DNA of 60,241 nt, counting the filler, from Stramenopiles sp. TOSAG23-3 (lineage: Eukaryota): assembly GCA_900128585.1 (NCBI GenBank). It is 6 parts of 6 records of this genome, joined end to end, with 100 filler letters (N's around TTAATTAATTAA, not from the genome) between each part and the next. Parts side by side here need not be neighbours in the genome. Positions count along the whole stretch, not along the records: positions 56,353 to 58,247 come from LT645270.1; 5 more parts are not named here. One strand, written 5' to 3'. A program made the translations under genes and the position numbers. Every line of letters begins with the position of its first letter. Position 1 is the stretch's first letter. Shown piece after piece: positions 23,696-60,241 of the stretch. The notes beneath the pieces were generated by a model. The model did no database searches. It saw only the letters and a list, made by a program, of their open reading frames with translations, and was not told where the DNA came from.

Positions 23696-23713
23696 CTTCG
23701 TCCTAAAAAAAAC

Positions 23714-36668: not shown

Positions 36669-36800
36669 TTCGTATACCGCGAAAGTGAATCTGCTCCGTT
36701 TGTCCATTAAAGGTTAAGTAAAATTACTATTAATTTAGTAAACTCCCTGTTAACATAAATTCATCGCTTTTGATACACACAAAATGTCCTTACTGGTGCT

Positions 36801-39918: not shown

Positions 39919-40925
39919 TGCTTAAATACGGAAAAATAGGCAAACGGAAGATTCACAGATTTCGAATACCTTCTCTGACTTTCTACGGGATGTATTAGAT
40001 CATTATTTTGCAGTGGATACCTTTAAAATCGCTTTCATTCAATGAATGGTCCAACCTTGATAATTGATATTATTGTATTCCATTGGATGGAGGTCATCTC
40101 TTCTTTTCTTCTCTCCTTGCAGTAGCACCAGTAATGTAGGATATTTTTTCCTTTTTGTTTTTTGTTTGTTTTATTATTGTAGTATTAATAGTTATTTATA
40201 ATAAAATATCTTTTTTTTCTTCTTTTTTTTTCTTTCTGTTGTCTGTTGTTGTGTTGTTTTCTAAAAATTCATTTCTTCTTTTCTTTCTTCTTCTTTCTAA
40301 AAAATTTATAATAATAATAAAAAAATAATAAAATAATGTAATACTGTATTATACAGTGTAATAATAATGAATTTTCATTGTTTTTTTAAAATATTAGACT
40401 ATTAATAATAAATTGAGATGATGATTATTGATGATGAATAATGTGAAAACTATATAAAGATGAAAACCTTATGCTAATGCTGTGTATATATATATAGTGT
40501 ATATAATAATAGTATTAATATTATTCCAACCACCCATTGTGTCACTCATAATTATTTGTTTTGTGCACAGGCAAATAACAACAATGCAAACAAACACAAC
40601 ATTTTCTAATTTTCTTTGTAGGTAGATCGTCGGAATATAAATTATTATTTTTATTTTAATAACGATTTTATGAGAGCATAATACATACTACCGGACACAC
40701 TGTTGTAGTATTAATAATTAAACGAACTTTAATAATAATACATTTGATCATAACAAATAAGTCATTGCATCATAATTGTATCAATGGTGGTAACTATCCT
40801 CGTGTGAATGATTGCAGTGCGAATTTTCTTCAGTCGATAGGATAGGAATAGAAAAAGCACCAGGTGCAACAGCTCATCAAAAATATTTGAAGAAACAAAA
40901 AAGGGTAGAGAGAGAGAGAGACGTG

Positions 40926-41693
40926 ATGTCGTTCTTGTGCAATTACTTTACGGCGAAAACATGTGTGCGGTTTGTGGAACTGTCCGGTTGCTTGGTAGCG
41001 CTCGTCATGTTTTTGCATGATGTTGGTGCGGGCGAATGGTTCACATGGCATCCCGTGTTCATGACGTTGGGGTTTTTATTTTTCATGACGGAGGGGATAT
41101 TGACGTATTATCGCGGAGTCGCGGCGAGAGAGAACAAGGCGTCCTCAAGAAGAACGCACATGAGGTTTCAGGGCTTAGGTTTTGTGTGCGTTCTTCTTGG
41201 TTTTATAAGCATATGGCGATCCCACCAACTGATGGGCCATGAGAACTGGCCAGATGACGACCACCCGGTAATAGTTAGGTACCATATGTACATTGGCTAC
41301 CTGGTGTGCCTGTTAGTAGTGCTTCAAGTACTTGTCGGGCTGTCTAAATATTTTTGTGTGGGGGCGAGGCTGAAATGGCATGGGAAAATAGGCCCATGGA
41401 TTTGGTGGGCAGGAATGCTGAACATTATTATTGGTGCCATTTTTTGGCACGGAAAATTGATCGGGCTTCGCGTGCTCTTAAGCGCTCTGGTTGTTTGTGT
41501 GATGGGGGTCGTCGCATTTTACTTCAGAAAAGTCCAGGTTTTGCGAGCAAACGATCGTTATTCGGAGGTGGTTGGAAGCACTGAAATTGTCGACATGTTG
41601 GATGACGTTGACTTGGGGGGCTTGGAGCAAACGCACCTGGGCAGTAAGTACAAAGACGTGTTAGATAATGAAGATTTTGACGCCAAGATTTAA
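40926..41693 (+). CDS. Cytochrome b561 family protein
   Basis: Heme-ligand His motifs FTWHPVFMTLGF, TH..FQ, YH..IG and WH..IG across transmembrane helices. Likely ATG at 40926. Confidence 0.82.
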   Translation: MSFLCNYFTAKTCVRFVELSGCLVALVMFLHDVGAGEWFTWHPVFMTLGFLFFMTEGILTYYRGVAARENKASSRRTHMRFQGLGFVCVLLGFISIWRSHQLMGHENWPDDDHPVIVRYHMYIGYLVCLLVVLQVLVGLSKYFCVGARLKWHGKIGPWIWWAGMLNIIIGAIFWHGKLIGLRVLLSALVVCVMGVVAFYFRKVQVLRANDRYSEVVGSTEIVDMLDDVDLGGLEQTHLGSKYKDVLDNEDFDAKI

Positions 41694-41980
41694 AGTTTGA
41701 AAAATTTGGGCTCAAGACGTTTGTAAAAAATATGGGCCGAGTCAAATTTCATAATTAACAAGGGAAATTAATGAACACTAGTTTTTTACTTTTTAAAGGA
41801 TTGACGGAGTTCTTTTAGATCTTTCTATGCAGTTCGTTCCATTCATTTTGTCTCCCCCTCGGTGGTGAGACTTTCCTGAGAGAAAATACTTTGTTTAAAA
41901 CTTTTCCCTATCATATCATACTAGAAGATATGGGCTTTCCCCCGATGCAATATTTTGCCACGCTTGTTTTTCGGGTTTCG

Positions 41981-42685
41981 TCATCGCAACAATGGGCTAA
42001 TGTCGAAATGCTGCGCGAAAGATTCGAATGGCTCTGACGAAGGCACGCACTTGACACCTTTGGGCACAGAAAACTTGGAAGGCGCTGGATTCCTTTTATA
42101 ATTTTTCTGGAAGTTTCGAGATCCTTCCGTGTTTCCTTCACGTGGGACGGTCTCAAAGCAAGCTGTCCCAAAAACGTCAAATTTCTTTTCCACCGCAGAC
42201 TGGGAAAGGTACCAGTTCATGTTTTCTGCAGGAAATTTGAAGGGGCCCTCCTGTTTCGCTGGGCGAAGATGTTGATAGTCCGTGCTTTCCTTGCCGCCAA
42301 TTTTAATTGTGCCGTTTTTAGTAGCTTGGGCATCAAGTTGGACAAACACGAAGGGTGGATCTGCCTTGACGGTTGGAGATTTTGGTGTAATAGTAGTACA
42401 ATTAATCGGATCATTCTTGCTGTCAAAAAGAACTTTGTACACAAGATTTTCTGTCGAGTTGAAGATGCTTGAACCTGTGAAACCTTCTGGCAACGAATCA
42501 TCCCTTCTCCAGCTCAATGTTGGTGTATCCAAGCACAGGTTGTACGCGCGGGAAGAATGCACTGACCCGTTTACTTTTAGGGTCTCGACCACGTCGGCAC
42601 AGAAGGAGTCTTCGACCACGGGGGTATCAGACGCCACTAGAGCCCCGTGCAAAGCAACGCATAAAACAGCAAGATATTTTTTCAT
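41981..42685 (-). CDS. Secreted protein, possibly ependymin-related (LolA/EPDR-like fold)
   Basis: Signal peptide MKKYLAVLCVALHGALVA, beta-rich body with spaced Cys, and PSKFSVPKGVKC near the C-terminus. The family call is tentative. Confidence 0.55.
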   Translation of the reverse strand: MKKYLAVLCVALHGALVASDTPVVEDSFCADVVETLKVNGSVHSSRAYNLCLDTPTLSWRRDDSLPEGFTGSSIFNSTENLVYKVLFDSKNDPINCTTITPKSPTVKADPPFVFVQLDAQATKNGTIKIGGKESTDYQHLRPAKQEGPFKFPAENMNWYLSQSAVEKKFDVFGTACFETVPREGNTEGSRNFQKNYKRNPAPSKFSVPKGVKCVPSSEPFESFAQHFDISPLLR

Positions 42686-43369
42686 TCTGTTCAGGTTGTT
42701 TTTACTAAACTCTTTGGGTAGTATAGGTACATGTATATTCAATGAAAAGAATCCGTTGTTCATCTTTCTCTTCCCTTTTTATTTAAGTTTGTATTTTGTT
42801 AGACATTTTACCAAGGTGTGGTTGAGTGAGAAATGACTAATTATTAAATAAATAATAATTTATACTTGGTAGTATAATAATATTAATACCAGGTAGTCTG
42901 TCTGTCTCTATAAAAATAAGAAGAAGGAAGATCGATGTATATAATATTCTCACAACCTTTTATTTTACAGTCACACAGTGAGGAATTTTAATAATATCAC
43001 TACGCCTCGTATACCACTAACGAATTGAAATCAGTATGGGCACCAGTAGTTATAATTTTATCCGAAGTAGTTGTAGACGACTTCGTTTACCTCTTACAAT
43101 TAACGAAAGCTTTTGGCAGACGCTAGCAATAAATTTCCTGCATTAATTCACAAACCTTTAAGAAAACGAACTGGGGATTCCTACCTTCCCCATTTCTATA
43201 GTATACCAGAACTCGGCCTTCCTTGTCCTGCTAAACACGTTGAATTGCATCCCGGCTGTCGTCAAAATGTCCGCTCAATAGACCAGCATTCTAAAATAAC
43301 GGTTTGTAAATTAGCCATAACAACGGGGTTTTCTTTGGGCAAAGGATACCAGGCTGGAGGCTCTGGCGG

Positions 43370-43597
43370 TCATTTCCCATTTCCTAACTCTACTGAAAGC
43401 TTTTTACTCTCTTTTCTCAGCTTTTTGCTCTCTTTCCTAGCTTTTTTTTCCGCCATTTGTTTTTTTCTCAGCGCTGCCCCCTCTGCTGTGAAAAACTCAA
43501 CGTAAATTTTTCTAAAGTAAGGAGTCACGAACGCCAACCCATATACTATAATAAGCATTAGGGATGACGTGTCCATTGCTTCTTCCTCCTCCGCCAT
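43370..43597 (-). CDS. Small single-pass membrane protein with a basic tail
   Basis: ATG start, one hydrophobic segment and a K-rich helix. Confidence 0.45.
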   Translation of the reverse strand: MAEEEEAMDTSSLMLIIVYGLAFVTPYFRKIYVEFFTAEGAALRKKQMAEKKARKESKKLRKESKKLSVELGNGK

Positions 43598-44744
43598 GAT
43601 TACCGGGCTGGATCAGTAACTATACCAACAACAATGAAACCTGTACAAGCTCGCGGCTGTGTACTAATAAAATTATATTTCCCTAACGAGGGAATGAACG
43701 GCGTACTCGTCAGTGCACCTTCTTTCAAAAACACGTCCCTGTGATCTGTTAGCTTTCGGTTTCTCTGTAGCCAAGAGAGGCGCAATGAAGAGAAATATAC
43801 TTCCTGGTCTTACAAAGTTCTGAACATTTTCTAAAGTACACTTTTGTAAAAACTGCAGCAGCAATTTATATTCCACCGTGGTGTATAGACTGACAACAAT
43901 AACACCGTTGCCGTTAAGATAAATGCCTGGAGGATGGATGATGTTTTTTTAGTCTACATCGTACATCATGATAATATTATAAGCCTAATATATAAATATA
44001 CATTGTATTTTATTACTAGATTCCTTCTTCTCAATATTTATAACAACAACTTCTGCTGCGGTATTATTACCGGTACCGTAGGTATTCACGCTGTTTTCAT
44101 CCCCGTCGTTATTATTTTATTATTTATAATGTAATGGCATTAATACTGGTATAATACACCTCCTATCTAGTCTATTATTTAGATAATACAATTTCCCCGG
44201 CCCTCTGGTTGGCTAATCGTCTACTCGTACTTGAAATGAGCTTGCTTTTCTGGATGTAAACATTATAAAATCAAAGCAGTCGTCCTCGTACAGTTCGTAT
44301 TTCTTCTTCTTCTATTCTTCGTTTCTTCTGTAATTAAATTAAGGTAAATTTAACAAATTATGATGTGAACCAACGATTTATAATATCAACACAGCATATA
44401 ATATTCTCATCGTACGCCATGCGCCATTGTTATTATATACAAAAATATAAATCATCGACGGAAAATTTTTTCTCCGAAGGACCACCACCTGTACAGGTTT
44501 ATACCAGGTACGGTATATGGCAACACCACAGGGAACAGGGACAAGACAGAAGAAGTAATAAAACAAAAAAGAAGGGGGGGGGGGACAAATAAACAAACTG
44601 TACAAGAACTGAACGAGAAAATAAATATAATTCGAAATGAAAAATGATTTAGTGAAATCAAGATTGCATGGTTAAATTCTATTTTCATTCTTTCTCTTCC
44701 CAAAGACAGCGTATTTGTAATCGGCCAATCGTGAAATAATCACC

Positions 44745-45308
44745 ATGTCTACCCCCCTTCGAGGAAAGATCAAAAGTGACCTACGTGCCCTGGATCAACT
44801 CGCAGCCGTGCATTGCTGGACCCCATCCTCCGCAAACATTCGCCCGGGTGAAAAGATTATTGTACAAAAGCAACATTTACTGGAGCAGGTAAATACATTT
44901 TATGAGTCCTTTAAAGATTATATTCATGATAGTATTTTTCAGTTTCAAATGACCTTGAATGAAAATGGGAAACTCAAGTCGATCGTTGAACCGGGGCAGC
45001 AATCAAAAACTTTGTCGCCAAATTTGTTCCCTTACAAATTGCCAGAAGGAACCTCGCACTATGTTTTGTGGTACACTGATGGGTTTGGGGAATTGCAAAC
45101 GCCCAGTGATTCTCAAATAACAGCGGATATAGACCAGGAATTAAAGCGTATATACAATGTGACAGCAAGCCTTACGGATGAAGTCGAGGTGCCGGAGTTC
45201 GTATGGTACGAAAATCCAAAAATAAACAGAGAAATTTATCACGTCCAAGTCTTCGTACGAAGTCCAGAAAAGAGCATGGTTGTTGAGGAGTGTAAATATT
45301 GTTCGTAA
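44745..45308 (+). CDS. DUF3605-like hypothetical protein
   Basis: PNLFPY.LPEG..HYVLW and FVWYENP......YHVQVF motifs. Confidence 0.6.
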   Translation: MSTPLRGKIKSDLRALDQLAAVHCWTPSSANIRPGEKIIVQKQHLLEQVNTFYESFKDYIHDSIFQFQMTLNENGKLKSIVEPGQQSKTLSPNLFPYKLPEGTSHYVLWYTDGFGELQTPSDSQITADIDQELKRIYNVTASLTDEVEVPEFVWYENPKINREIYHVQVFVRSPEKSMVVEECKYCS

Positions 45309-45414
45309 AAGGCATCCTCTCTGAAAATCCATTTTAATGCCAGTAAATTAATTACATAGTGTACCTTCACTTTCCTAATTCTCCTTCGGGCGGGTTACCC
45401 TTTCGCTTTTATTC

Positions 45415-47124
45415 TCAGTACTCCAACACCTGCAAAACGTGCTTCAACATACTGCCCATTTCTCTAAGAGACTGGTCGCTCAACCCTTCTGCACGATGGC
45501 CAGCGTTCTCGTAGCTTCTCGCAATCATTGCCTCAAACTCCCTTAGTTTAGGTACAAGAACCGTTTTATCAAAGTCTTCCCGAGCTCCAAAATCGTCAAT
45601 AACAATCGCAACGGTGGGCAAACAGTACTCTAAAATGTTTCTCGAGGGCCCCTTGACTTCGCAGTGAACAACGATCGTCTCAAGCGACCCTATTATGTTT
45701 AAGACGTGATCTAAAATAGACCCTGCGTCAACGCTCATCCAGGTACTGATCAATCGAAAGCACACGGACAACGCCTCTACAAGCCCTAGATTCGGCCCAT
45801 CAAAAGAGCACCCGTTCGCCTTCAACGCCTTTCCAGCGTAGTCAACAATATCTAAACTAGCATTCACCACGTCAACAAAGGAGTCACGAAGCATCAACAA
45901 CTTATCTGCTGGTAAATCTTTCCACATCATGCTCGCCTCTTTGTTGCTGGAATCTTCCTCTGTGGCCAACAGGTGCACAACGGAATGTTCCACTATACCG
46001 TAACACGAAGCCATGGTGTCCAACGATTTCCTAGCTGCCGCCTTATCTTTACTGCCATCATCGACTACAACCCGAGCAATGTCGTCTGAATTAACCCTGG
46101 ACTCAATCATTACCAATTTGGCCATAAGAACACAGAAATCGCTTGGTTTTCGATTGGCACGAGCCAGCCCGCGGCTAATGCACCAGCTGGATTGCTGCGA
46201 TGAAACCATGTAATTGAGCAAACGAAACAGGTTCGGCCGGTGCTTCATTGGTATCTTGTTGCGCATCATACGGAATAGACCTTCGTGAATAAAATCTTCC
46301 CAGCCCGACTTTCCTGGAGACGTGGCCTCCAATGCATTGCTCCCATTTTCGAAAAAGAGCGCAAGCGCAGCCATTGCATCAAACACCAGGGAACTTTCCG
46401 TTATGGTCGCAAATGCGATAGACAGCGCTTCAACACAAGCCTTGGCATCGGGCTGTTGCAAATCACCTTTCGAATCGCTCCTGCACAGTTGAGTTAAAAG
46501 ATACATTGCGCACACCTTCGACGTATGAGAGCTCGCGCTGGACTTTAATTCTGCCGCAAGAGCTTGAGTAGTGCGCACAGATCCATTAAGAGACGAGGCG
46601 AGAGCCTTGGTCACAATTGTGGGGTTTGCACGGCAAAGTGCCACTAAGCACTGCGCCGTCTCTTCTCTATTTCGGGCATTTACGGAGCAAAAGTGGGAAA
46701 GTAGCTGGTCGTTTATGTCCAAAAACGTTTTTGCTACTTCTTGGTCTTCAAAAAGGTACGATAAAATGACAAGTGCGAGGTCTCTATATGTTTGGGAAGC
46801 GGTGGCTTTTTCGTTGCCCCCAGGAGGCGTTGCAACAAACAGGCGGCGCAGAAAGTCCCCCCCTAATGCCTCAAAAATCAGTTTCCGCGCGTCCTTTATC
46901 CCAAAGCAACCTCCATCTGTGCTGTTCGCTTCCGTGCCACTGCCGGCGGCAACGTTTGAGTCCTGACTAGGGGCTCTATTTTGTAGAGTCTTGGCTAAGA
47001 AAAGGAGACCGACGAATCGGTGTTCATCCGACGGCCCCTTCAACAGTTTCAAGCACTCACCGAACGAGTCAGTCGAGGCTGCTAGGGACGACTTCGACGT
47101 GGGCGGCGGGCCTGTCCCTGCCAT
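45415..47124 (-). CDS. NCDN: Neurochondrin family (ARM-like) protein
   Basis: N-terminal CLKLLKG.SDEHRFVGLL.LAK and IFEALG.DFLRRL signature; helical repeat composition. Confidence 0.78.
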   Translation of the reverse strand: MAGTGPPPTSKSSLAASTDSFGECLKLLKGPSDEHRFVGLLFLAKTLQNRAPSQDSNVAAGSGTEANSTDGGCFGIKDARKLIFEALGGDFLRRLFVATPPGGNEKATASQTYRDLALVILSYLFEDQEVAKTFLDINDQLLSHFCSVNARNREETAQCLVALCRANPTIVTKALASSLNGSVRTTQALAAELKSSASSHTSKVCAMYLLTQLCRSDSKGDLQQPDAKACVEALSIAFATITESSLVFDAMAALALFFENGSNALEATSPGKSGWEDFIHEGLFRMMRNKIPMKHRPNLFRLLNYMVSSQQSSWCISRGLARANRKPSDFCVLMAKLVMIESRVNSDDIARVVVDDGSKDKAAARKSLDTMASCYGIVEHSVVHLLATEEDSSNKEASMMWKDLPADKLLMLRDSFVDVVNASLDIVDYAGKALKANGCSFDGPNLGLVEALSVCFRLISTWMSVDAGSILDHVLNIIGSLETIVVHCEVKGPSRNILEYCLPTVAIVIDDFGAREDFDKTVLVPKLREFEAMIARSYENAGHRAEGLSDQSLREMGSMLKHVLQVLEY

Positions 47125-47767
47125 TGGTTTGTGTTTCTAAGTGGCAAATTGTTTTCAGATCACAGTCAAAGCTGTCTCGTTTCACAATGGCCCTTACCCT
47201 CTCTTAAAATAGTTCACTGTTTGGTCTGATACTACATTGAGAATGTGCTATCGTGACGCATAAATTGTTATTAGTGCATCTCAAGTAATAAGGTCTCATT
47301 ATTAAACAAAACTTGGTATTTAATTTGAGACCGTCCGCCGTCGTTCGTTCCTATTATATTTATATTATTATTTCACAAAAATTCATTCGTCTCTTCATCA
47401 TTCTGTTGTAGTATACCTGTACCGTATTAATACCTGGGAACCGGTACCTGTACCTTTTCTTCACTCGAATTATTCCGTACGGTAATAGTAATACTATGGA
47501 AAAATTAATTTTAATACCCCCCCCCCTCTTCTCTCTATTATTGTATTATTATTGCTATTATTATATTACACCCAATGACGACTAAAAAAATGAAATAAGG
47601 AGGTGGTGAGCAAAGTAAAATGATGATATTGAATACGGCATGTATTGTGTTACGAGATTTCGTACTGCACAGGCACAACACACCTATTAACTCTTTTCTT
47701 AACGATCAGATTTTGCACATTTGATGACAGATTCCGACGACGAGGGGTCTTCTTCATTGCTGGTGGG

Positions 47768-48422
47768 TTATGATTCCCCAAGAGGCTTTAATTGGACAGC
47801 GTATTTGTTTTTGCTTGGTGTACTGGTCGGGGTATTTGCGGCATCCTTTTCCTCCTCCAAGAGCTCAGTGTTCATGAAACTGGCCTTCATCTTTTTTCGG
47901 ATGAGCTTGCCCCTCAGTTTGTGCTTCAATCCTCCCCACCCTTTTATCTTGTTCTTTTCATAAAAATGCGCCTTCATTCCGTTTAAAAACGACGTGGCCC
48001 AATGAGGGTATGTGGAAATCAACCACTCGACGTCCGACCAATGCAATGTACAGCATAATCAGAAACGTGAAAAAGCAACGAAAGCAACTTTTCGATTTTT
48101 TTTCTGGAGATTGCGCGGGTTCATTACCATTCAAGGACGTTCTTTCTGTTGTTCCACTCTGCTGTTCTTTTAATAATGGCTCCGAGTCAGTGTCATAATT
48201 CAACAGTTTGCTGGACATATTCGTCCTCTTGAGCAAGGATTTGATGGCATGGTCGTTTCCAGATTCAACTGCTTTTAACAATTCCCTTTCAGACGTTATG
48301 AAATAGTGGGGAGACGTTGATGGTTCGACCATTCGTATCGTTCGATCCTTCTTACAAATTTTTGCCTGTTCTGGTTTCACAATTATGCACATTTCCAAGG
48401 AAGGGCTGAAGCATTTCAACAA
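47768..48422 (-). other. Possible fragmented or spliced gene (two overlapping ORFs in different frames)
   Basis: Coding-like composition between AT-rich spacers, but no single continuous ATG-initiated frame and no recognisable domain. Confidence 0.3.
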
Positions 48423-49191
48423 AACAAAAATCGATTGTCGCTTACTGGCGTTCGTCGGTAACGTTTTTGATATAAAATATGCATATATGCATATATATAT
48501 TTTAAATTAATTTATAACTAAATTTTCTTTCTTATTTTTATTATATGTTGTTATTATTATTAATTAATTAATTATTTTATACTTTTACTTCTTACTATTA
48601 TTATATAATTTAATACTCATCTCTCTCATCATATTTTTTTAATTTTTTATTATATTTTTAACGACGCGTCTTCTTCTTACTTCTACTGTTATAATAATAA
48701 ATAATTGTATAATAAAATAATAAATACCAAATTGGTACAAAATACATTATTTTGTTAGATAGAGGAACATAAGTATAACTTCTCGTATTAGTATTTATAA
48801 GTAATATTATTACTATGAATGAACGGAACTTCTTTTGAAAAAAAAAAAAGAAATTATAATTTAATAATACCATCATGATGATGAGAGTCTTCTCATCTCA
48901 TATTATTTTTTAATGATTTTGAATTACCGTTCCCTTGGTACAGATCATACTAGTAGTACCGGTATTAGTAGACGACGACGAGATTGAGATTGTGTTGAGA
49001 AAATTTTGGTGTTCTTGTCCACCGTATGCATGCCTTCCTAGAAAAATCCCTCCGAGAGTTTTGTTCAGCACAGACTGTGGTCAGTTAGGGTCACTTTTAC
49101 TCACAAATGTAAACGTGATTGGTACTTGTCGGACGCCCCACTTTATTATAGCAGCTTTGTGCTTCTTTTTTACCCAGTGTTGTTGGGCGAC

Positions 49192-50184
49192 ATGTCCAAA
49201 ATTGGGGCATTGCTTCAAACGTTTCCAGAGATGATTGTTCTGGATGGGGGATTGGCTACACAACTTGAGCATATGGGGTTTATCCTAGATACAGATCTTT
49301 GGTCGGCTGCTTTGCTGCATAGCAAGCCCGATGCAATTGTTGAGGCCCATAAACTATTTTTAATCGCAGGCGCTCAAATAATAATTTCAGCAAGCTACCA
49401 GGGAAGCACGAAAGGTTTTATGGACGTTTTAAAGTGTTCCAGAGACGAGGGAACGGCACTACTTTTGAAGTCTGTAAAACTTGCTCAGCAAGCAAGAGAC
49501 GAGTACATTGCGGAACGCACTGGGCAAACGACCGTGCCCATTGTTGCTGTGGCGGCCTCCTGTGGCCCTTATGGTGCGGTGCTTCACGATGGGTCAGAGT
49601 ACACCGGCGACTATAGCAAGCTAGGGTCACGCGTGAGAGACGTTCTGGAAGCTTTTCATCGCGAGCGCTTGTGCAACACATTGGATTCTACGGGCGCTGA
49701 CGTCATTGCCATAGAAACTATTCCAAGTTTTATTGAAGCTGAAGTGTTGCAAAGTTTGTGTCAACTTCTTAAAACGAATTTTTGGGTAACATTTTGCTGC
49801 AAGGACGGGTTTCATTTGTCGGATGGTTCAAAAGTTGCCGAGGCAGTACTTCTGTTTTCGAAGTTGGACCGCTGTGTCGCAGTCGGAGTAAATTGTGTAC
49901 ACCCCAAATTTGTGACTTCGTTGGTGAAAGAAATCAAAAGCACCGGTATCCATGGTCACAAAAGAATAATAGTTTATGCCAATTCTGGAGAGGTATGGAA
50001 TAGCGAGGATGCTTCGTGGTCGCCGGACCCGGAAACGGACGGGGCAGATTTTGTAGACTATACGAGTGAGTGGGCAGCAGAGGGGGTAAGCATGATTGGG
50101 GGTTGTTGTCGAGTCTTCGACGCATCGATACAGCAACTTTGTACAAAATTCAAAGCAAAAGATCTTGAGAGACTCTGCGTATGA
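49192..50184 (+). CDS. mmuM: Homocysteine S-methyltransferase (MmuM/HMT family)
   Basis: VLDGGLATQLE, LWSAALL, GPYGA.LHDGSEYTGDY, and Zn ligands GVNC and GGCC. Likely ATG at 49192. Confidence 0.92.
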   Translation: MSKIGALLQTFPEMIVLDGGLATQLEHMGFILDTDLWSAALLHSKPDAIVEAHKLFLIAGAQIIISASYQGSTKGFMDVLKCSRDEGTALLLKSVKLAQQARDEYIAERTGQTTVPIVAVAASCGPYGAVLHDGSEYTGDYSKLGSRVRDVLEAFHRERLCNTLDSTGADVIAIETIPSFIEAEVLQSLCQLLKTNFWVTFCCKDGFHLSDGSKVAEAVLLFSKLDRCVAVGVNCVHPKFVTSLVKEIKSTGIHGHKRIIVYANSGEVWNSEDASWSPDPETDGADFVDYTSEWAAEGVSMIGGCCRVFDASIQQLCTKFKAKDLERLCV

Positions 50185-50393
50185 CACCGCGGGCAGAATT
50201 TATTTTAATTCTTGATTCGCACTTTTAGGAATGAAGCATTTGGAGGAGGTGCCCCAAATATTAAATGCTATGATAAAGCTTTTTTGTTAATCTTCAGATT
50301 TTACCCATCTACACTACGTTACGATTTTAAACTTCTACCTCGTAAAAAGTTTAAACTTACGTATGTTTATATACTTCTAACAGAGTTGTGCAC

Positions 50394-50975
50394 CTAATTG
50401 TCCGGCGCAATTCTTGGTGGGCATGATCCTAAATCAATTGAATCCGGGACACGATATGCGACACCCTTTGAGCCATTTCCCCATTGCAACATTGGGGCGT
50501 CGCACAACATACCTTCGGAAGAGGTTCCCGCGACACTAGTTTTCTTCACCACAATCGTTCCTTCTTCTTCTGTGCTGGAGGCGGGTACACGCGCGCCGAT
50601 GCGGGCGACAATCAACCGGTCGCCCTCGCGCACTTTTGAATCATTTGTTACGACCGTAATGGCCTTTTCCTCCCCTTCTCCAACGTCGACCTTGCATTTC
50701 TTTAGTTTGTCTGATAATTTTTCTGAGGCTAAAACAAGACCACAGCAGTAGTTTTCGTACATTCGAACCCAAGGAAAATCCTCCGGCTCAATAACTTCTC
50801 CACAGTCCGCGCACATCGCTGCAGACGTGCACGAGTATATACTACGGAGTTTTTCGACGCCTTCAAAGCCATCATTATCCTCTTCGCCATCTTCCCTCAT
50901 AAACGTAGTCCCCTCACAAGATTCACACGTCAGCTTGTTCATAAAATAACACGTCTCTTCATCTTCGTCCGACAT
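50394..50975 (-). CDS. Stand-alone tRNA-binding OB-fold protein (PheT-B2/Trbp-like) with an N-terminal CxxC...CxxC region
   Basis: KLKKCKVDVG...ITVVTN...V..GD...VA.IGA.V...VKKTSVAG..SEGMLC. Likely ATG at 50975. Confidence 0.75.
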   Translation of the reverse strand: MSDEDEETCYFMNKLTCESCEGTTFMREDGEEDNDGFEGVEKLRSIYSCTSAAMCADCGEVIEPEDFPWVRMYENYCCGLVLASEKLSDKLKKCKVDVGEGEEKAITVVTNDSKVREGDRLIVARIGARVPASSTEEEGTIVVKKTSVAGTSSEGMLCDAPMLQWGNGSKGVAYRVPDSIDLGSCPPRIAPDN

Positions 50976-51982
50976 ATCTACAGCGCAGCGTAGTGCGGTT
51001 TGAAATGTTTGAACAAAAGTTTTACTGCTCTTCTGTTTTCGCTTTGTTATTTTAAACAATGGTGATAGAGAATGCTCAATTCTGAATTCTGATCGAAATA
51101 AGAAGTCGACAATTTAAAACTAAAATTATTAGTCTATGCATTGATAATAATATTATACATGTATTTACGTATGTATTAATATTTCCCCAATCAACTTCAA
51201 AAATACGGTGTAATAAATAATTGTTGCCTCTTCTTCTTCTTCTTCTAAATTTTTTCTAGTTAATAAAGCTAATTAATAATCCATTTAAAAAAAGAAGAAC
51301 GAACGTAAGATAATAAAACATTAAAAACAAATTAAAAAAATGACAATACGATCCTCCACGCTACACGCTGTAGTATTATAATAATAATAGACTAGTCAGT
51401 TCTAAGTAAATAAAATAATAATTTAATTTAATAATAATAGAGTAGTAGGCGGTGGTCTACGAACGCAATTGAAGTAAACTAATATAAACCTCGATTCATT
51501 CAATGCTGTGTATATATTTTTCTTCGGTCGGAGAGAGTCGTAAAGAAACGAAGAAAAAATAAAAAAGGCGAAGAACGACGACAGAAGACGACATTTTTTG
51601 GAGGAAGAAAAAAAAAAGAACAAACAAAAAAACTTTTCAATCGATCATCATGATATCATCATATATTATAATTATATTAGTCGTCTAATATTCGCGTCGT
51701 CTGAATAATAATAATAAAACATCATCACCATCTCATACTTGGTAATAAATCTTGTTTTTATCTGATATCGTAGATGACAATGAAGGAGAATAGATTCTGA
51801 AACAATTCGAGGGAATGGCGAAGAATGTTATAATGTGCCGGATGCAAAGAATATTGATCATACAACATTTTATTTAATAAAATCGGTCGATATTTGCCTG
51901 CGTGCCCCATAGAGTTTTCAATAAAAGTTTGCCTGGTCTTCCATTGTTTTTCAACTAAGCCTGTAACGTGGTAGCCCTCCCG

Positions 51983-53266
51983 ATGTCCAAAGTAACGTTC
52001 GACGCCGGTGGCACGGCAACCGTGCGCCTCCACAAGCGCGAGCGCGGCTCTTACTTCGGTCACCCTGGCATCTGCACCGTGACTTTTTGCCATGGCGATC
52101 CGAAGACCACCCACGCCGCCCTCAAAACTAAGTTTCTGGAGGTGCTCCGTTCCAACCCCTGGATCGGCGGGCGCTTTGACAAAAATAAAGACCTCGTCTT
52201 CAAGAACACCGACATCTCGGACACAGACGTGAACGAGATTTTAGTCCCAGTCCGCAAGAACGCCGCGGTCAACCGTGCTCAGCCGTACCCCGCACTCGTT
52301 TCTGCTGTCGCTAAGGACGCGAGCATGTCCGTGGTGCAGGGGAACAAGCTGCTAAAGTCCGCAGGTTGCATTACCAAGTGCGTCGTGGTCGAGCCCGAGC
52401 AGCCCGGGGGTGAGTTCGTGATCGTGTTCTCGATGTCTCACGCCGCCGCGGATGGACATGATTACTACCGCATTCTCAACATGGTATGCGGAACTGATCC
52501 CGTAGAGGCCATGAACCCGAAGCGAGTCGAAGAGTACGAAACACGAGAGCCTGAGTGGACTGGCAAGAAGGATTTCAAGTTTCTCTCCGGCGGGGGTCTG
52601 ATGAAGGGCATGCTCACCGGGATGTGTTGCGGTCCAAAGGCCCAGTGGTGTTGCTATACGGTGGACGATGCCAAGGTCGCTGCCGCAAAGGAGAAAAGCG
52701 TGGCCGGGGCCGCGAAGATCGGAGCGAAGGGCGTCGAATACGTCTCCACGAACGATGTGCTGACGTCCCACTTTTGCCGCGCGACTGCGGCCCGCGTGTG
52801 CATGATGGTAATCAACTTTCGGGGCAAGATTCCCGGGCTCCCGCTCACCGAAGCAAACTCCGGGTGCTACGAGGGGTGCCTTCTCCTGGACCCTGAGAAC
52901 TACGCCGACCCCGCCTTCGTTCGAATGTCGCTGAACGCTGGTCTGCCGTACACCAGGCAAATGCCCTCGCCGAAGCTTCCCGGCTGCTGTGGCAGCTGCC
53001 CAATGGCGTTTATCACGAGCTGGGCGAACGGCGCCGTGGGAGGGGGCCGGTTCGACGCATGCAACGTCGAGGGTGTGGAGAAGCAGAATTTGCATCTCCC
53101 GTGTATGGATATGCCGGACATGATGGACGTCGCTATAGTGTTCAAGCCGACGCCGGACAAGTACGGTGTGATCTACTTGGCGAAGCGGGCCAAACCCGAC
53201 GTCCTCTTCGGGGAGGGCACGGTTCTCGGGGAGCCCCTGGGCGGCATGCTGTTCCCTTTGCTCTGA
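51983..53266 (+). CDS. CoA-dependent acyltransferase superfamily protein (HxxxD)
   Basis: NPWIGGR, FSMSHAAADG, VSTNDVLTSHF, INFR and FITSW motifs. Confidence 0.72.
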   Translation: MSKVTFDAGGTATVRLHKRERGSYFGHPGICTVTFCHGDPKTTHAALKTKFLEVLRSNPWIGGRFDKNKDLVFKNTDISDTDVNEILVPVRKNAAVNRAQPYPALVSAVAKDASMSVVQGNKLLKSAGCITKCVVVEPEQPGGEFVIVFSMSHAAADGHDYYRILNMVCGTDPVEAMNPKRVEEYETREPEWTGKKDFKFLSGGGLMKGMLTGMCCGPKAQWCCYTVDDAKVAAAKEKSVAGAAKIGAKGVEYVSTNDVLTSHFCRATAARVCMMVINFRGKIPGLPLTEANSGCYEGCLLLDPENYADPAFVRMSLNAGLPYTRQMPSPKLPGCCGSCPMAFITSWANGAVGGGRFDACNVEGVEKQNLHLPCMDMPDMMDVAIVFKPTPDKYGVIYLAKRAKPDVLFGEGTVLGEPLGGMLFPLL

Positions 53267-54256
53267 AGAAAAGGTTCTGGTTGACGAGAAGACCCTTACT
53301 GCAATTTTCATTCTGTATTTTTAAAATTCGGTTCGTTCTTGGTTCTCGAAAATGTATAATAGAACCCTATAATTATAGACTACGTAATCCAAGTGATAAA
53401 TGTCGCATTTTAAAATTATTTTGGAAATCTACCCAATGATATGCCTATGTAATAAATATCCCTAGTATTATTATTTGGAAGAAGTACAAAGTGTAATCAC
53501 AATAATAAAAAATGATCATGCTGTGTCGTCGTCATCACAATAATAAAAAATGATGAATTTAATGTTTACGTAATCCTCCTTTCTAGGGATAATAATATTG
53601 GATTCTTTCATCATTCTTTTCTTTCTTCTTCTTTTTTTAATTTTTTTCTTCTTTTTTCCGTTATTATTTCGATTTATTTCATACTAGACTAAATAAAAAA
53701 TTGGTTCGTGGTATTTTTTTAAATTATATCGGTGAGTATGAGTATGGTACGGTACGATCGAAACGTTTCAAATCATACATAATATTCCAATAATACTAGG
53801 TACCAGGAGGTATCCTCGTACTGGTTTCTATTAAAATAGACTAGGAACCTGTAGAAACAATTAGAAAAAGAATTGTTTTTTTTTTTAAACTTGAGTGAAA
53901 ACCATTATATAGGCAACATGTACTTGTATTATCTCTTAGAGATAAAGGAAAGCAACATCAAACACTTGTTTTTCTTCTAATAATTCTAGTGTAGAGTACT
54001 TTACAAGTACGTAAATAAGCATATATTAGATAGGAAAATATGTTCGGACAACACAAATTCAAAATAATAACAGGTAATAGCAGGAAAAATAAGAAGAAAA
54101 ACAAAATATTTTTTTTTCTTTTTCCGACTGTCCGATTCGTATTATAATAATTTGACTTCCTTCTTCTCCTCCCTTGGTCACTTGGTATTAATAACGTACC
54201 GGTAACCAGGTACGGTACTAATACTACTACTTCTCAATATCCTAAAAAAAAAAAAA

Positions 54257-54356: not shown

Positions 54357-54595
54357 TAATATTAAATATAGACTATGATGTTTTAAACTTTTACTACTAC
54401 TACTACTAATCACATTGTTCTTCAACAATTATTGGTTTTCTCTACTAGTAAAAAACAAAGAAACATTTTTCAGTACTACGGAAAATCAATTATTTGCTGT
54501 TGCTTGTAGATTTTATATTCAATTATTAGTAGATTATATAGAGTAACCGTTTTAAAAGTAGAACCGTGGTCCGAAAATAGAGTTGTTTAGAAGCG

Positions 54596-55447
54596 ATGGT
54601 TTCCATACGTTGTTTGGCTCTGAAACTGTATTCTTGGGCAGCTGTGCTTTGTTTTCTCCTGGTAGAGAGCAACGTTGGTGTGTTCGCGTCCCTTACATAC
54701 GACGGTCCCAGGAGACTCGGGTGGAAAGTGCCTACTAAGATCATCGACGATCCTAATCGTGGGTTTGTGCGTGTGCCAGATCCGTCCAAACGTCGCCCAA
54801 TATGGAGTTCCGACAGCCCCGACCCATACGCCCAGAAACCGCTTGACGGGCACGACTCACGGTACTCAAAAGGTCACAGTCGACCTTACTTCCTTCCCCC
54901 GTTGAACGACGAGGTTCAACAAGAGGATTACCGTGATGTGTACGATGATGAGTCAACCGATATGTTAGATGACGATATGCTGGATGTCATGGAGGATGCT
55001 TACGATACGCAAGGTGGTCCCAAAATACGAAAAAAGCGCAAACGCACAAAGTATTTGAAACGTAGCGTAAGCGATGCGATTGCTTGGGCCACGCGACAAA
55101 TACGAAGGCCAAGCCAATCCTGGTACAAATTGTGCCAATCATTTGTTCGCCAAGCCTACGGCGTTCCCGGTTGGGCCGATAGCGCGCAGCTCGCTTGGGA
55201 CAAGATTCCAAATCACAAAAAAACGATCGGCGGGAGCCCTTTTAGTGCACCAAGGGGCGCAGCTTTGTATTACAGCGGGGGGGAATTTGGGCACGTAGCA
55301 TTGGCCACCCGCACCAAATGCCTGTCGAATGACTACAGAAGGTCAGGAAAAATCAATTTTGCGCCTAGAAATTTTCCAAAATGGAATCAGAAATACTTGG
55401 GGTGGAGCATGTGGACGCCATTCGGGGAGATGAGGCCATACTCTTAA
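54596..55447 (+). CDS. Secreted protein with a C-terminal CHAP/NlpC-P60-like cysteine peptidoglycan hydrolase domain
   Basis: N-terminal hydrophobic signal and acidic linker, then AIAWA...W..LCQSFVRQAYG...SA..AW...APRGA.LYY.GG.FGHVALA...YLGW with a Cys/His dyad. Confidence 0.75.
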   Translation: MVSIRCLALKLYSWAAVLCFLLVESNVGVFASLTYDGPRRLGWKVPTKIIDDPNRGFVRVPDPSKRRPIWSSDSPDPYAQKPLDGHDSRYSKGHSRPYFLPPLNDEVQQEDYRDVYDDESTDMLDDDMLDVMEDAYDTQGGPKIRKKRKRTKYLKRSVSDAIAWATRQIRRPSQSWYKLCQSFVRQAYGVPGWADSAQLAWDKIPNHKKTIGGSPFSAPRGAALYYSGGEFGHVALATRTKCLSNDYRRSGKINFAPRNFPKWNQKYLGWSMWTPFGEMRPYS

Positions 55448-56008
55448 TTTCTGAAGAAGACCACAAAAATGTATGTGTGTGTGTGTGCATAAAATACTGT
55501 GTGTATTTTTTAAAGAAACTTTTTTAATTTCTAAATAACGGTACGGGAAAAAGGAAATATGATGGAAAAAAATAAAACCAGCGCGAAGTAATAGTTCAAA
55601 CGCGCTCCTCAGAAAAATCGGAATCATCATCCCCATTTTAAATAGTTTGGTTTTAACATAAACACAGCATTAATATTATTACAATGTATATAATCGCCTT
55701 AAAACAGTGCTAGGATAATGTATTTATTTGTATTCTTATAGACACTACTATAAGAAAGACTAAATATTCTTCTTTTTTCTCCATTTTTTAAGGCTTTATA
55801 TAACTTCTACGGTCTCTCATTCCTATAATATTTATACCTATAATTTGGAATAATACGCACGTCGTACGTCGTAGTACCGATTGATTTTATTTATTCATCA
55901 GCAGGTTAATAAGGGAAGAAAGGGACCGAAGAACGGTTGGATTGATCATCCGGTATGGGATTTTTTGTGAATACACCCGTACGTACTTCTTCTTAATGTA
56001 AAAAAACC

Positions 56009-56252
56009 ATGTTCGGTTTACAAAGTAATAAGTCCAAAGGTATCGGTACTCTCACTCAAAATTTGAGCAGTCACGATTTCCTCGGCGGAAAGGCTGGAGG
56101 AGGCCTAGGTAAGAGAGTGATGGCCGGAAGAAAGTTTCGTTTTGAAATAATCAAGCAGTCGACCAAAAGCAGGGCCAGGGTTGGCCGGATCGTCACGCCG
56201 CACGGGTCGATCAAAACGCCAGCCTTCGTCCCAGTAGGAACAAATGGGGTAT
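56009..56252 (+). CDS. tgt: Queuine tRNA-ribosyltransferase (TGT), N-terminal fragment
   Basis: FRFEII..STKSRARVGRIVTPHGSIKTPAFVPVGT; cut by the contig end. Confidence 0.85.
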
Positions 56253-56352: not shown

Positions 56353-56568
56353 CGACCACTCGACGACGAGGAGAAGTCGTTTTGGAGCCATGCCCTGGGG
56401 AGGGCCGAGGACGACCCAAACGGTCGAAGCCCCCAAGGACGACGACGTGCGGGGTTCGGGCGCCCCCCCCCGCCCACCGACCCCCAGAATGGACGACCAT
56501 TCCGACCGCCCAAAGCACCACGTCAACCCCGCCAACGACGACGGCACCGGGGCAGGCGCTCGGAGCCC

Positions 56569-58247
56569 ATGGGAACGGGTCTCTGCCTCCTCATGATCAT
56601 GGCAATGAGCTGGCGCGACTGTCAACGAGTCGGAGTTACCGGAACTCGACCAAAACTTTGGCACGACAGGTTCTTTGGCACATTTACCAAGGAAACACCC
56701 GAACGTCAAACACAGGAGAGACCCAAACAACCCGCGACACCACACACCATTGGAAACCAAGAAACCCAACTTCGGACTGCTTGGTACGACGAAAGCGACA
56801 GTTATAATAACGACAAAAAAAAGAAAAGAAAAAGAAATCGACTTTCAGTACTGACGCTACCGACAACGCGCTCCGCAAACCAGAAAAAAAGAAAAAAAAG
56901 ATGGATCAAACCAAGAACTCAAGGGAGGTACGGTACCGATCCTCCCCAAAAACCCGACAAGACCCAAGGAACAACAAAAAAAAGCCCGAAAAAAAGCGCG
57001 AAAAAAAGCCCGACAACGCACCTTCGCGATGGCATACAAATTTTCGTAAAGACCCTGACCGGTAAGACGATTACTTTGGACGTGGAGCCGAGCGACACGA
57101 TCGTGAACGTCAAGCGAAAGATTCAGGACAAAGAAGGTACCCAACACGACAAACAGCGGCTGATCTTCGCCGGTAAGCAGCTGGAAGACGGGCGAAACCT
57201 GAGCGACTACAACGTTCAGAAAGAAGCCACGCTGCATCTGCTACTCCGCCTTCGGGGAGGCGGAGGAGGCAACGGCGACGCCGGCCGACCAGCAATCCCA
57301 AGGCGGAGTGCCCGGCTCCGTAGACTTGAAGCCGAAGGGGTGCAGCGGAGTAGAAGGAACGGAGGGGGCCCGAGCACCCAAAGGAGACAAGGCTGCAGGA
57401 ACCCCCGCAGAAGACCCGAAGGTGAAAGCCCACCAGGACCAAGCCCGGAGAAGGCGGAGGACACGGTCAATCCCCGACAGCTCCGGCCTAGCACGGGCCC
57501 ACCAAGACCAAGCCCGGAGGAAGCGGAGGACCCAGTCGAGAGAATCCAGAGGGCACACGCGGAACTTCTCGAAGGAAGACCCGTAATGTCCCTGGCGGGC
57601 CACTTCGTATTCGTCCACAAAAGTAACTTTGCGGACACGAGGGACCACCAACAATACGAAGGCACCCAGCCCACAAACGAAGAAACACGACGAATGGACG
57701 TATCACAAGCCTTCAGCGTGGCACGAATAACAAGAGTATTCCGCGAAAGAGGAAAAATCATGGCAAACCTCCAATGGGAGGACGCAAGAAACGTCTCAGA
57801 ACCAATCGAGCTGACAAAATGGCTGGAAATCATCGCAAAAATTAGCCGTCGCCGGGAACTAATGTCAGCCTCACGACTCCAAGGAACCATCGAAGACCAG
57901 GAATGGCTACGCGGAATATACAGCACGAACCACCCCCCATCCTTCACCGACTACCGAGCGCTCCCACGCTTCAACAACAAAACGGGGAAGCACCACAAGC
58001 TGACCGGGGAAATATTTGCCTGGCTTGGCAACGAGATGATCCCGAACAAAGGTCAAATCCACTGGATGACGATGCCGATCTCATTCATGATCACCCTGGC
58101 CTCCATCAAGATACCCGCGAAGCTGGACGACCCGAGGAATTCGAAGAAAGACCTAACGCCCAAGCGGGCATGGATAAAGCAATTACAAATGGTACAGTCG
58201 GGCAAATGGCGGGACCTATACGACGACGTCACAAGATGGAAAAACCA
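56569..58247 (+). CDS. Ubiquitin-containing polyprotein, probable non-LTR retroelement ORF (3'-truncated)
   Basis: Complete ubiquitin unit at 57034-57261 inside a long open frame. Strongly A/C-rich sense strand. Ends ...[11 protein letters not shown], like the pre-RT region of RLE-type non-LTR elements. The RT itself is not visible. Confidence 0.6.
57034..57261 (+). other. Embedded, slightly diverged ubiquitin domain (76 aa)
   Basis: [76 protein letters not shown]. Confidence 0.95.
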
Positions 58248-58347: not shown

Positions 58348-58348
58348 C

Positions 58349-59464
58349 GGCAAGTCGACCGTTTCCTTAGGGATAGTGTCGGCCCTGCAGCAGAAGGGGG
58401 TAAACGTTGGGTTTATAAAGCCGGTTGGGCAACAGCATGTTCCAGTTGAATTAGTTGACGAAGAAACGGGGGAAACCTCCGTATTGAGCGTTGACAAAGA
58501 TGTGCGGCTAATCAACAAATACTTTGGCCTGAACGGCAACTATAGAGATATGAGCCCGGTTGTGATGCCTAGCGGCTATACAAAGCAAATTATAGACAAT
58601 GCAAAGCCAGGGATGAAAGCGGAAATGAGGAAAGACATTATGAATGCCTATAAAAATTTGGAGCAGAAACACGACTTTTTAGTGTGCGAAGGCACCGGTC
58701 ATGTTGGAGTTGGAGATATCGGCGGCGTTTCTAACGCAGTGGTTGCTGCCAGCGTGGGCACGAACGTCATTCTAGTTGCGGAAGGGGGGCTCGGCTCCGC
58801 CTTTGACGAGCTTTCCATAAACAAAGCCGCCTGCGATGCGGCTGGCACCAATATTTTAGGCGTAGTATTGAACAAAGTGATTCCGTCAAAAGTCGATATG
58901 ATTACAGATTATTTTCAACGGGCGATTTCCCAATGGGATTTCCCACTTCTTGGGGTAATCCCTTATACCGAAGAACTGACGTTCAAGGCGAACTACGATG
59001 TCGAGAGGCTGTTCAATTGTTCGATGCACGAAGATCAACGCAGGAGCCATTTGTTGAACCACCCGTCGGGAATTCAAGTCGCAGCCAGCAGTCTAAACAC
59101 ATTCATTGAAGATTGCCTTAGTACAGAGGACAAACACAGCATTTTAAACCGGGCAATCGTCATCGACGAATCGCGCACGGACATCATCGAGTTTCTTTGC
59201 CATAACGCAGCAGTTTTGGGGAACAGTTTTAAGGGCATCATCATCGTTAGTAGCAAGGGCGAACGAGCGTATAGATCCGATGTGGAATCACTGTACTCAA
59301 ATTACCCGTGCATCGTTGTACCGGACCCGATAGAGAAAGTCGTGTCAAAGTACGTGAATAATACAGCAAAATTTAACGAAGTAGATCTCGAACGCACAGG
59401 GATGGCCACGCAGGTTGTAAACGACAACTTTGATTTTGACTTGATGATGAGGCTGCTGAAGTAA
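58349..59464 (+). CDS. BioD-like (AAA_26) plus DRTGG-like protein resembling the phosphate acetyltransferase N-terminus, 5'-partial
   Basis: GKSTVSLG, VGFIKPVGQ, DFLVCEGTGH, SNA.VA, GGLGSAFDEL and GVVLNKV. No Pta catalytic domain follows. Confidence 0.8.
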   Translation, partial: GKSTVSLGIVSALQQKGVNVGFIKPVGQQHVPVELVDEETGETSVLSVDKDVRLINKYFGLNGNYRDMSPVVMPSGYTKQIIDNAKPGMKAEMRKDIMNAYKNLEQKHDFLVCEGTGHVGVGDIGGVSNAVVAASVGTNVILVAEGGLGSAFDELSINKAACDAAGTNILGVVLNKVIPSKVDMITDYFQRAISQWDFPLLGVIPYTEELTFKANYDVERLFNCSMHEDQRRSHLLNHPSGIQVAASSLNTFIEDCLSTEDKHSILNRAIVIDESRTDIIEFLCHNAAVLGNSFKGIIIVSSKGERAYRSDVESLYSNYPCIVVPDPIEKVVSKYVNNTAKFNEVDLERTGMATQVVNDNFDFDLMMRLLK

Positions 59465-59474
59465 ATTAAGAGAA

Positions 59475-59513
59475 AAATTTAAAACAAGAAAATTGGCTGT
59501 TATTTAAGTAATT
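59475..59513 (+). repeat. Dispersed AAAACAAGAAAATTGGCTGTTATTTAAGT repeat copy
   Basis: Identical core to 6271-6299. Confidence 0.8.
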
Positions 59514-60241
59514 ATAAAATTAACAAGAGCAATCATAAACTTAAGAGTTTTACCAGTTCCTCCCTGGCTTTTAGAAACATAATTTAATAACCAACACCCT
59601 CTGGGGAACATTATTACTAAGTACTTTTTTTTTTAGTATTTTGTACATTTTTTCTTATTTTTGGCACTTGATTTACTTTGAGTGTCACTAAACTCTAAAT
59701 GGATCAATATGTTATAATCCAAAAAAGTATATTAAAATAGCCAGTATTTTGTTTTAAAAATATATTCATAGAGCAGTACAACAGAAAACGAGCGCGTTTA
59801 AAACATTTATGCCGCTGTTTACTTGCCAATTGGAATCTTGACCAGAACTCGGGGAAGGTCTGCAACATAACATATGTTATTGTTCTTGAACTGACACCTT
59901 CTTTTTTCTTTATATTTAAAAAACAAACTAATGATATAGTATGTTTTAAGACTCTCAAGATTATCCCAATTGTAGAACTGATCTAAATTTGCAACTGCTA
60001 AAATTCATATCACTTTAAGTCGGTCGGTACCTCCTTTGTCGTTCCTACAATATTGTATCATTCGACCCAGGATTTCGTCTTTAATATTTTAAACACATAA
60101 ATTATTTTGTTTCTAAACTCTTTCCCCCCAGATTTAAACGTAAAAAAGTAAACATAGGGAGTCCATTACTATCATACTGATAGAATTGTGCACCCTGGGG
60201 AAAGGGTAAAATGTTTAAGAGGATTTTAAAATAAAACGTTC

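Follow-up and report, generated by a model that had tools for sequence, protein, structure and literature searches.

How does a complete ubiquitin come to sit midway along a long open reading frame (ORF) that has no other Pfam domain, and what might it do there? The question is posed by a window of 60,241 bases (the whole stretch of DNA analysed here) from Stramenopiles sp. TOSAG23-3, which is not one locus: it is made up of six contigs (1-18088, 18189-36195, 36296-54256, 54357-56252, 56353-58247 and 58348-60241) with spacers of N and TTAATTAATTAA. The ORF that contains the ubiquitin fills the whole fifth contig (1,895 bp). It runs on the plus strand as a single frame of 631 codons that is free of stops from end to end, whereas 500 mononucleotide shuffles contain 21 stops on average and never fewer than 8, and the assembly cuts it at both sides, both contig ends falling inside the ORF. 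The first-pass annotation started at 56569, where an ATG lies; the sequence details it gave hold, but the frame is already open upstream of this ATG, from the first base of what is a contig of its own. Our answer, for and against which we find the case evenly balanced, is that the ORF belongs to an element which is rare, evolves fast and is probably selfish or repetitive, and in which a captured ubiquitin would serve as a cleavage site for host deubiquitinases.

The ubiquitin unit occupies 76 codons (codons 228-303; 57034-57261, plus strand). It is complete, with all seven lysines, I44 and the LRLRGG tail, just as had been read from the sequence at first pass: the match to Pfam PF00240 (E 1.4e-25) covers profile positions 1-72 of 72, and phmmer aligns residues 1-76 of the unit with residues 1-76 of single-unit ubiquitin chains of PDB at E-values of 6.4e-38 to 1.4e-37. 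Identity to human ubiquitin is 64/76, the 12 changes being M1I, E16D, E24V, A28R, I36T, P37Q, P38H, Q40K, T55N, I61V, S65A and V70L. Unchanged are K6, K11, K27, K29, K33, K48 and K63, together with L8, I44, H68 and LRLRGG; the L8/I44/V70 patch is present, with V70 replaced by leucine. The first codon is ATA (Ile), one base off ATG, and with it Met1 has been lost, the nearest upstream in-frame ATG being 143 codons before the unit. The unit has thus retained what deubiquitinases need, namely the residues that define the fold, the patch of L8, I44 and H68, and the LRLRGG tail, and the pattern of changes fits a module kept for folding and deubiquitinase recognition, not for all cellular roles of ubiquitin.

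The origin of the unit can be read from its upstream border. The five codons that precede it encode HLRDG (57019-57033, plus strand), which is what is left of another ubiquitin unit that came before it and ended in RLRGG at its 3′ end. These 15 bases agree at 11 positions with the unit's own last 15 (57247-57261), a value equalled by 1 of the 1,621 other 15-base windows of the contig, and a weaker excess of similarity reaches 42-60 bases upstream. Since the HLRDG codons match the unit's own 3′ end in this way, the unit was copied from a head-to-tail polyubiquitin, and the junction CTTCGCGATGGCATACAA (LRDG-IQ, 57022-57039) is best read as a decayed polyubiquitin junction. Both proposals had been made in the first-pass annotation and are supported, the mutated junction by this comparison and the capture from polyubiquitin by the junction remnant together with a contrast at third codon positions described below. 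A degenerate second ubiquitin upstream was ruled out: 72 of 228 bases agree, against 60 +/- 6.6 at control offsets, and the protein score of the 76 codons upstream lies within the range of shuffles, with no Pfam match. Nothing ubiquitin-like is found upstream of the unit beyond the last 5-14 codons, and downstream the intact LRLRGG is followed by glycine, an arrangement that would make the unit cleavable on one side only, in agreement with the original suggestion. A possible donor for comparison was seen separately, in a 260-bp contig of the public sequencing run X1 (record 4), where only 38 bases match (57176-57213, 3 differences), with AT-rich unrelated DNA on both sides; the contig possibly represents an exon of a ubiquitin gene belonging to the organism itself, and such a gene would be the obvious donor for a comparison.

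Base composition also sets the unit apart from the rest of the ORF. T makes up 12% of the contig and 9% of its third codon positions. For the ORF as a whole the fractions of A and T at third positions are 0.32 and 0.09 (ratio 3.6), and outside ubiquitin they are 0.32-0.35 and 0.04-0.13, the downstream domain being the extreme case (0.33 and 0.04, ratio about 8). The ubiquitin unit has 0.18 and 0.13 (ratio 1.4), with G and C both at 0.34, which is host-like and resembles GC-rich host genes; the difference in third-position A between the unit and the rest of the ORF has a Fisher p of 0.008. Among the 16 other ORFs of the window, third-position A ranges from 0.10 to 0.35 and T from 0.10 to 0.31, and the ratio is 1.4 or less in 16 of 16. 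The A/C skew of the strand noted at first pass is therefore real, but as evidence on its own it is weak, because GC-rich host ORFs of the window are also poor in T (15-18%); what is peculiar to this ORF is the excess of A over T at third positions, which is present as well in the relative L002 introduced below (ratio 2.4-3). A-rich sense strands are typical of retroelements. Altogether, the composition fits a host-derived insert in a carrier with a strand-specific mutational history of its own.

What follows ubiquitin in the ORF is a real protein, as the first-pass annotation supposed, and it is under purifying selection. Its C-terminal domain, from EDPVERIQ to the contig end (57526-58247, plus strand), is basic (pI 10) and contains no cysteine. 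The closest comparison is provided by L002, a contig of 1,460 bp and the one relative found by a scan of Joint Genome Institute (JGI) metagenomes with alignment A4: the two are 74% identical in amino acids and 77% in nucleotides, with dS of 1.27, dN of 0.16 and dN/dS of 0.13 over 121 codons. An exhaustive HMMER search with the 328 residues after ubiquitin among 1.84 billion cluster representatives gave only four matches, all of them fragments (122-148 residues, 46-60% identity). One of the four, P0004, falls into the same 90% cluster as P0006 (294 residues, encoded on a 3,216-bp contig), which spans the whole domain at 55% identity and ends 75 residues beyond the end of the window contig. All known relatives are five short metagenome fragments and L002, and the domain is accordingly an orphan, selected and basic, met so far only in fragments from marine metagenomes.

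Neither the domain nor its relatives nor their profile has a match in Pfam, among PDB sequences or in the ESM Atlas. The A3 profile had 0 matches to PDB sequences at E up to 10, where P0006 had one chance match (E 1.6); Pfam matches outside ubiquitin at E up to 10 stayed at chance level (MAPEG, E 0.07; DUF4597, E 0.27), and the ESM Atlas held no usable match for the domain or P0006. Word-index protein searches came back empty for the domain at near lengths, for P0004 against longer proteins and for linker plus domain against shorter proteins. Another JGI metagenome scan, with alignment A2, matched 71 stretches, among which were 0 relatives. L001, a 29-residue match in a metagenome-assembled genome of Bacteroidaceae found among prokaryote genome contigs, was rejected as chance (its E-value of 4e-4 holds among candidates only). 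An AlphaFold2 model of the domain built from five sequences was too poor for a fold search (mean predicted local distance difference test, pLDDT, 48; predicted template modelling score, pTM, 0.36).

Several of the relatives look damaged. L002 is open from its first base and consists of 3.1 linker units followed by the domain, in the middle of which the similarity breaks off and gives way to unrelated AT-rich DNA. What it lacks is the 3′ part, not the 5′ part, and by this anatomy it appears to be a broken copy. In P0005 and P0003 the alignment breaks off short of the sequence end, in the way that a frameshift would cause. The AT-rich DNA past the breakpoint of L002 (1006-1460) holds an ORF of 60 codons and a 25-nt match (92%) to window positions 36296-36318, a weak hint of origin in a related organism.

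Between ubiquitin and the domain lies the linker (57262-57525, plus strand), which starts with the glycine run GGGNG (57262-57276), three more glycines thus standing directly after the LRLRGG tail, and continues as a stretch rich in R, P and G. The duplicated motif reported in it at first pass is confirmed as 41 nt that recur with 88% identity (57428-57468 and 57497-57537). The linker is homologous to a 207-nt unit repeated 3.1 times in L002 (1-635), where the units match at 79% and are still open in frame; the window linker corresponds to one such unit plus a partial duplication of 69 nt. From this difference in number it follows that the linker expands and contracts by tandem duplication. 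Upstream of ubiquitin, the N-terminal part of the ORF (N-part, 56353-57033, plus strand) is basic (pI 11.4), of low complexity and rich in K, R and P, without a Pfam match. Its in-frame ATGs are at 56569, 56593, 56599 and 56605, and the next one comes only at 57586. Its frame contains 0 stops, compared with 2-5 in each of the other five frames, and an N-part free of stops occurred in 0.05% of 2,000 shuffles. Among metagenome variants 8 of 13 base changes in it are non-synonymous; the N-part is probably coding, with weak constraint. Just before the junction, three overlapping copies of a 16-nt A-rich motif, spaced 12 nt apart, encode KKSP/KKSA (56977-57016, plus strand). The idea that N-part, linker and domain are repeats of one another was rejected on comparison.

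Part of the ubiquitin contig was present in 20 of the 23 listed public sequencing runs, which come from 13 studies. Four runs, X1, X2, X4 and X15, were compared with it as contigs, not as raw reads; statements on habitat and expression draw on these four, and runs with small word shares (X3, X5-X14 and X16-X20) do not enter them. Record 3 of X1, a very small run of 8 million letters that is single-cell-sized and probably amplified, covers 56859-57160 with 0 differences and crosses the junction of N-part and ubiquitin. The junction of ubiquitin and linker is crossed by X15 record 13 (57214-57364, 0 differences), by X4 record 26 (57229-57374, 1 difference) and, in a diverged variant, by X2 record 19 (57160-57318). 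The last of these is ~93% identical to the window and carries the last 34 ubiquitin and first 19 linker codons in frame, two insertions (1 and 8 bases) jointly preserving it; 6 ubiquitin codons differ, of which 4 changes are synonymous and 2 conservative (Y59F, V61I), and LRLRGG is unchanged. Small as the sample is, these changes appear to point to constraint on ubiquitin. Outside ubiquitin, the marine metagenomes X2 and X4 contain pieces with 0-11 differences, X2 records 15 and 16 being two variants of the same 94 bases in one sample, and the X1 copy has 5 differences over 640 bases. One X1 contig (2,836 bp, overlapping 57608-58247) extends 2,196 bp past the 3′ end of the window contig, and an X2 contig of 836 bp extends 760 bp further. 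X15 is an oligo-dT RNA library, and four of its 151-base pieces, with 0-1 differences, fall in the N-part, ubiquitin, the linker and the start of the domain; since such libraries can contain DNA, this is a hint of transcription only. Two signals of read depth were set aside. The pile-up of metagenome depth at 57057-57248 is no evidence on the locus, because it is caused by ubiquitin genes of other organisms, including a true polyubiquitin with a 228-base back-joint. The depth in X1 (13.5 for the 3′ part versus 3-4 elsewhere) was discarded as a measure of copy number, as the figures are per contig and the run is small and probably amplified.

These elements can be assembled into a scenario. The ubiquitin unit, together with the last codons of the unit preceding it, was copied from a polyubiquitin gene or transcript of the host and now differs from canonical ubiquitin by 16%. 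Linear ubiquitin fusions are cleaved by deubiquitinases except where Gly76 is followed by a proline, and a folded ubiquitin with LRLRGG followed by glycine is a deubiquitinase substrate, as in polyubiquitin and ubiquitin-ribosomal protein fusions. Host deubiquitinases may be expected to cut the ORF product after Gly76 during or soon after translation, yielding on one side the basic N-terminal piece, which would retain ubiquitin and its free GG end, and on the other a protein of linker plus orphan domain with an N-terminal glycine. An upstream cut is not expected, because no folded ubiquitin stands before the HLRDG remnant. We infer that the purpose of the cut would be to let the element, which would then need to encode no protease, make two proteins from a single ORF.

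As for the carrier, we lean towards an element that is selfish or repetitive, possibly a retroelement, and that comes from a marine flagellate not yet in culture; we infer its mobility from several features: the skew at synonymous sites is common to the distant relative L002; the contig is cut within the ORF at both ends; relatives occur only as short and often damaged fragments (L002, P0005 and P0003); variants exist within samples; and no orthologue is found in sequenced genomes. That it is specifically a non-LTR element, one without long terminal repeats (LTRs), as the first-pass annotation had it, strikes us as doubtful. The 631 codons contain neither an apurinic endonuclease-like (APE) nor a restriction-like endonuclease (RLE) domain nor a known type of ORF1 (RRM, CCHC, Transposase_22, PHD or esterase) at the level of Pfam and within the part in view, P0004 and P0006 end 75 residues past the contig end without a reverse transcriptase motif, and no second copy of the element is found in the other 58 kb of the window. 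A motif close to the P0006 end, directly ahead of the residues HP, is reminiscent of one that precedes the reverse transcriptase in some protist retroelements, but no result of the analysis backs the resemblance and we give it no weight.

A number of observations weigh against a selfish element that exploits ubiquitin. Neither the 631 codons nor the 75 residues by which P0006 extends beyond them contain a reverse transcriptase, endonuclease, integrase or other mobility domain. Twelve substitutions in a protein that is normally near-invariant could also mean decay of a passenger, and ubiquitin has been observed in two close lineages only, those of the window and of X2 record 19. The L002 contig begins inside the linker repeats, upstream of which ubiquitin would lie; and because P0006 and P0005 start at a methionine equivalent to 57586, the domain may be a separate, ubiquitin-free ORF in some relatives. 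Variation in the N-part is nearly neutral, and its openness is less striking beside the 2-5 stops of the other frames.

The alternative that survives best is that the ORF is an ordinary, lineage-restricted host gene, or a small family of them, which lacks mobility and whose basic product has ubiquitin in its interior. We regard it as unlikely, but it remains a serious rival. A host gene would account for the absence of a mobility domain, for purifying selection on the domain and for the pieces with 0-1 differences in the oligo-dT library X15; GC-rich host genes on other contigs are T-poor too (15-18%), and the near-identical pieces that several studies' marine metagenomes contain may do no more than follow the organism. 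It does not, however, sit well with an excess of A over T at synonymous sites that no other ORF of the window has, with the lack of an orthologue from any sequenced genome among the 1.84 billion representatives, with relatives that are truncated or frameshifted, or with a contig that breaks inside the ORF at both ends.

If the carrier is granted, the ubiquitin itself might still be a neutral passenger, i.e. a piece of polyubiquitin cDNA brought in by template switching or recombination and tolerated without a role in processing, perhaps in slow decay. The 12 substitutions, which include the I36/P37/P38 loop, the loss of Met1 next to an upstream remnant that is already degenerate, and the restriction of ubiquitin to two close lineages are all compatible with such a fate. 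Yet despite 16% divergence all lysines, the hydrophobic patch, LRLRGG and the frame are intact, and the differences between the two lineages are mostly synonymous. Moreover, deubiquitinases would, given their known properties, cut an intact fold that ends in GG whether or not this serves a purpose, and the unit would therefore not be functionally silent. We consider a mere passenger improbable.

More improbable still is a viral origin, with the contig as an integrated or co-amplified piece of a virus or of a virus-like polyprotein instead of a cellular element. The polyprotein-like layout with a captured ubiquitin recalls cytopathogenic pestiviruses as far as these are described in the available text of PMC13517609, and orphan domains and a composition unlike that of host ORFs would not surprise in a virus; against this, three scans of the viral contigs of IMG/VR gave 0 relatives, the stretch is present in DNA runs, L002 joins it to AT-rich, cell-like DNA, and no viral hallmark domain is found in the ORF. 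Lastly, an assembly chimera of a host ubiquitin gene with unrelated sequence, which a short contig in a fragmented assembly and the reads drawn to ubiquitin from many organisms (pile-up at 57057-57248) might suggest, is refuted as far as contigs show, because independent contigs of different runs and studies cross both junctions with 0-1 differences and the frame is continuous across both.

The remaining contigs of the window carry ordinary genes of a flagellated eukaryote, e.g. for dynein heavy chain (6511-18088), a gamma-tubulin complex protein and a Rad51-like protein. At 25305-34227, GC-rich genes (two ORFs without a Pfam match and the gamma-tubulin complex protein) share a contig with AT-rich DNA. 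Because the genome is compositionally so uneven, composition alone is no basis for calling DNA foreign in this organism. The very start of the same contig, beside the GC-rich gene block (25.3-34.2 kb), resembles a DNA transposon (18189-23792): perfect 79-nt inverted repeats (18189-18267 and 23714-23792) flank an AT-rich stretch of 5.4 kb, in which three ORFs lie (18221-19783, plus strand; 20740-22098, plus strand; 22603-23463, minus strand), the first of which contains 228-nt tandem repeats, and none of which has a Pfam match at E 1e-5. In addition, an AT-rich repeat of 45-49 nt, 88-93% identical between copies and present in both orientations, occurs at 6288-6332, 36505-36553, 36587-36631 and 59471-59519. 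Its copies lie directly 3′ of gene ends, and one of them begins 7 bases past the stop (59462-59464) of an AAA_26/CbiA-like gene. The repeat does not resemble the T-poor ubiquitin contig.

What would follow if the selfish-element reading were right? A protist mobile-element family may have domesticated host ubiquitin as a cleavage module operated by host deubiquitinases, with an N-part-ubiquitin product that host ligases could attach to other proteins; we offer this tentatively and think it less likely than its opposite. If true, it would be the first known case of a cellular transposable element with a polyprotein processed via a captured ubiquitin, and the element's N-terminal protein would keep a conjugation-competent ubiquitin with a free GG end, which host ligases could attach elsewhere. 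The locus would also amount to a natural experiment on the residues needed for deubiquitinase recognition alone, 12 having changed and the lysines, patch and tail having been kept.

Full-text searches of open-access papers and preprints turned up no report of ubiquitin inside the ORF of a transposable or selfish DNA element, although subscription journals or Repbase could hold one. Ubiquitin as a cleavage site operated by the host is known already, from short-lived pestivirus recombinants and from the fusion genes of the cell itself, and at the ubiquitin insertions of pestiviruses cellular ubiquitin hydrolases make the cut. The nearest parallel is that of cytopathogenic pestiviruses (bovine viral diarrhoea virus, BVDV, strains such as Osloss), in which, according to the available portion of PMC13517609, ubiquitin is present in one or two copies, either where NS2 meets NS3 or ahead of a duplicated NS3. 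There, as far as that account goes, host ubiquitin is captured in frame in a long polyprotein ORF directly before the protein to be released, as one or more units, sometimes with extra fragments, and without a ubiquitin-specific protease of the virus. The same layout, ubiquitin in frame inside a long ORF, is found in the window, where a cut by host enzymes is predicted. Those pestiviruses, however, have RNA genomes and infect cattle, and their insertion forms de novo during infection, whereas the protist unit is DNA, is 16% diverged, is common to at least two lineages and has flanks of no known virus family.

Polyubiquitin, ubiquitin-eL40 and ubiquitin-eS31 resemble the protist ORF in being linear fusions that end in LRLRGG and are processed by deubiquitinases. 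In these natural fusions, however, ubiquitin is N-terminal, whereas the protist unit is internal, lacks its Met and is preceded by at least 143 codons in frame. The protein joined to it is an orphan domain and not a ribosomal protein, the downstream part having no Pfam match to one, and the layout is thus not of the ubiquitin-eL40 or ubiquitin-eS31 type.

[quoted passage not shown] According to the same sources, 2A peptides act by ribosome skipping and have 18-30 residues, whereas the protist module is a folded host protein with a predicted cut by a host enzyme. NeSL and Utopia-1_TSP non-LTR retrotransposons, which carry Ulp1-like cysteine protease domains as far as the available text of PMC4640811 tells, likewise link the polyproteins of mobile elements to the chemistry of processing ubiquitin-like proteins. 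By that account they encode the protease, whereas the protist ORF encodes the substrate, ubiquitin, and no protease domain. Should the carrier prove to be mobile, captured ubiquitin would represent a third route of polyprotein processing, beside element-encoded proteases and 2A skipping.

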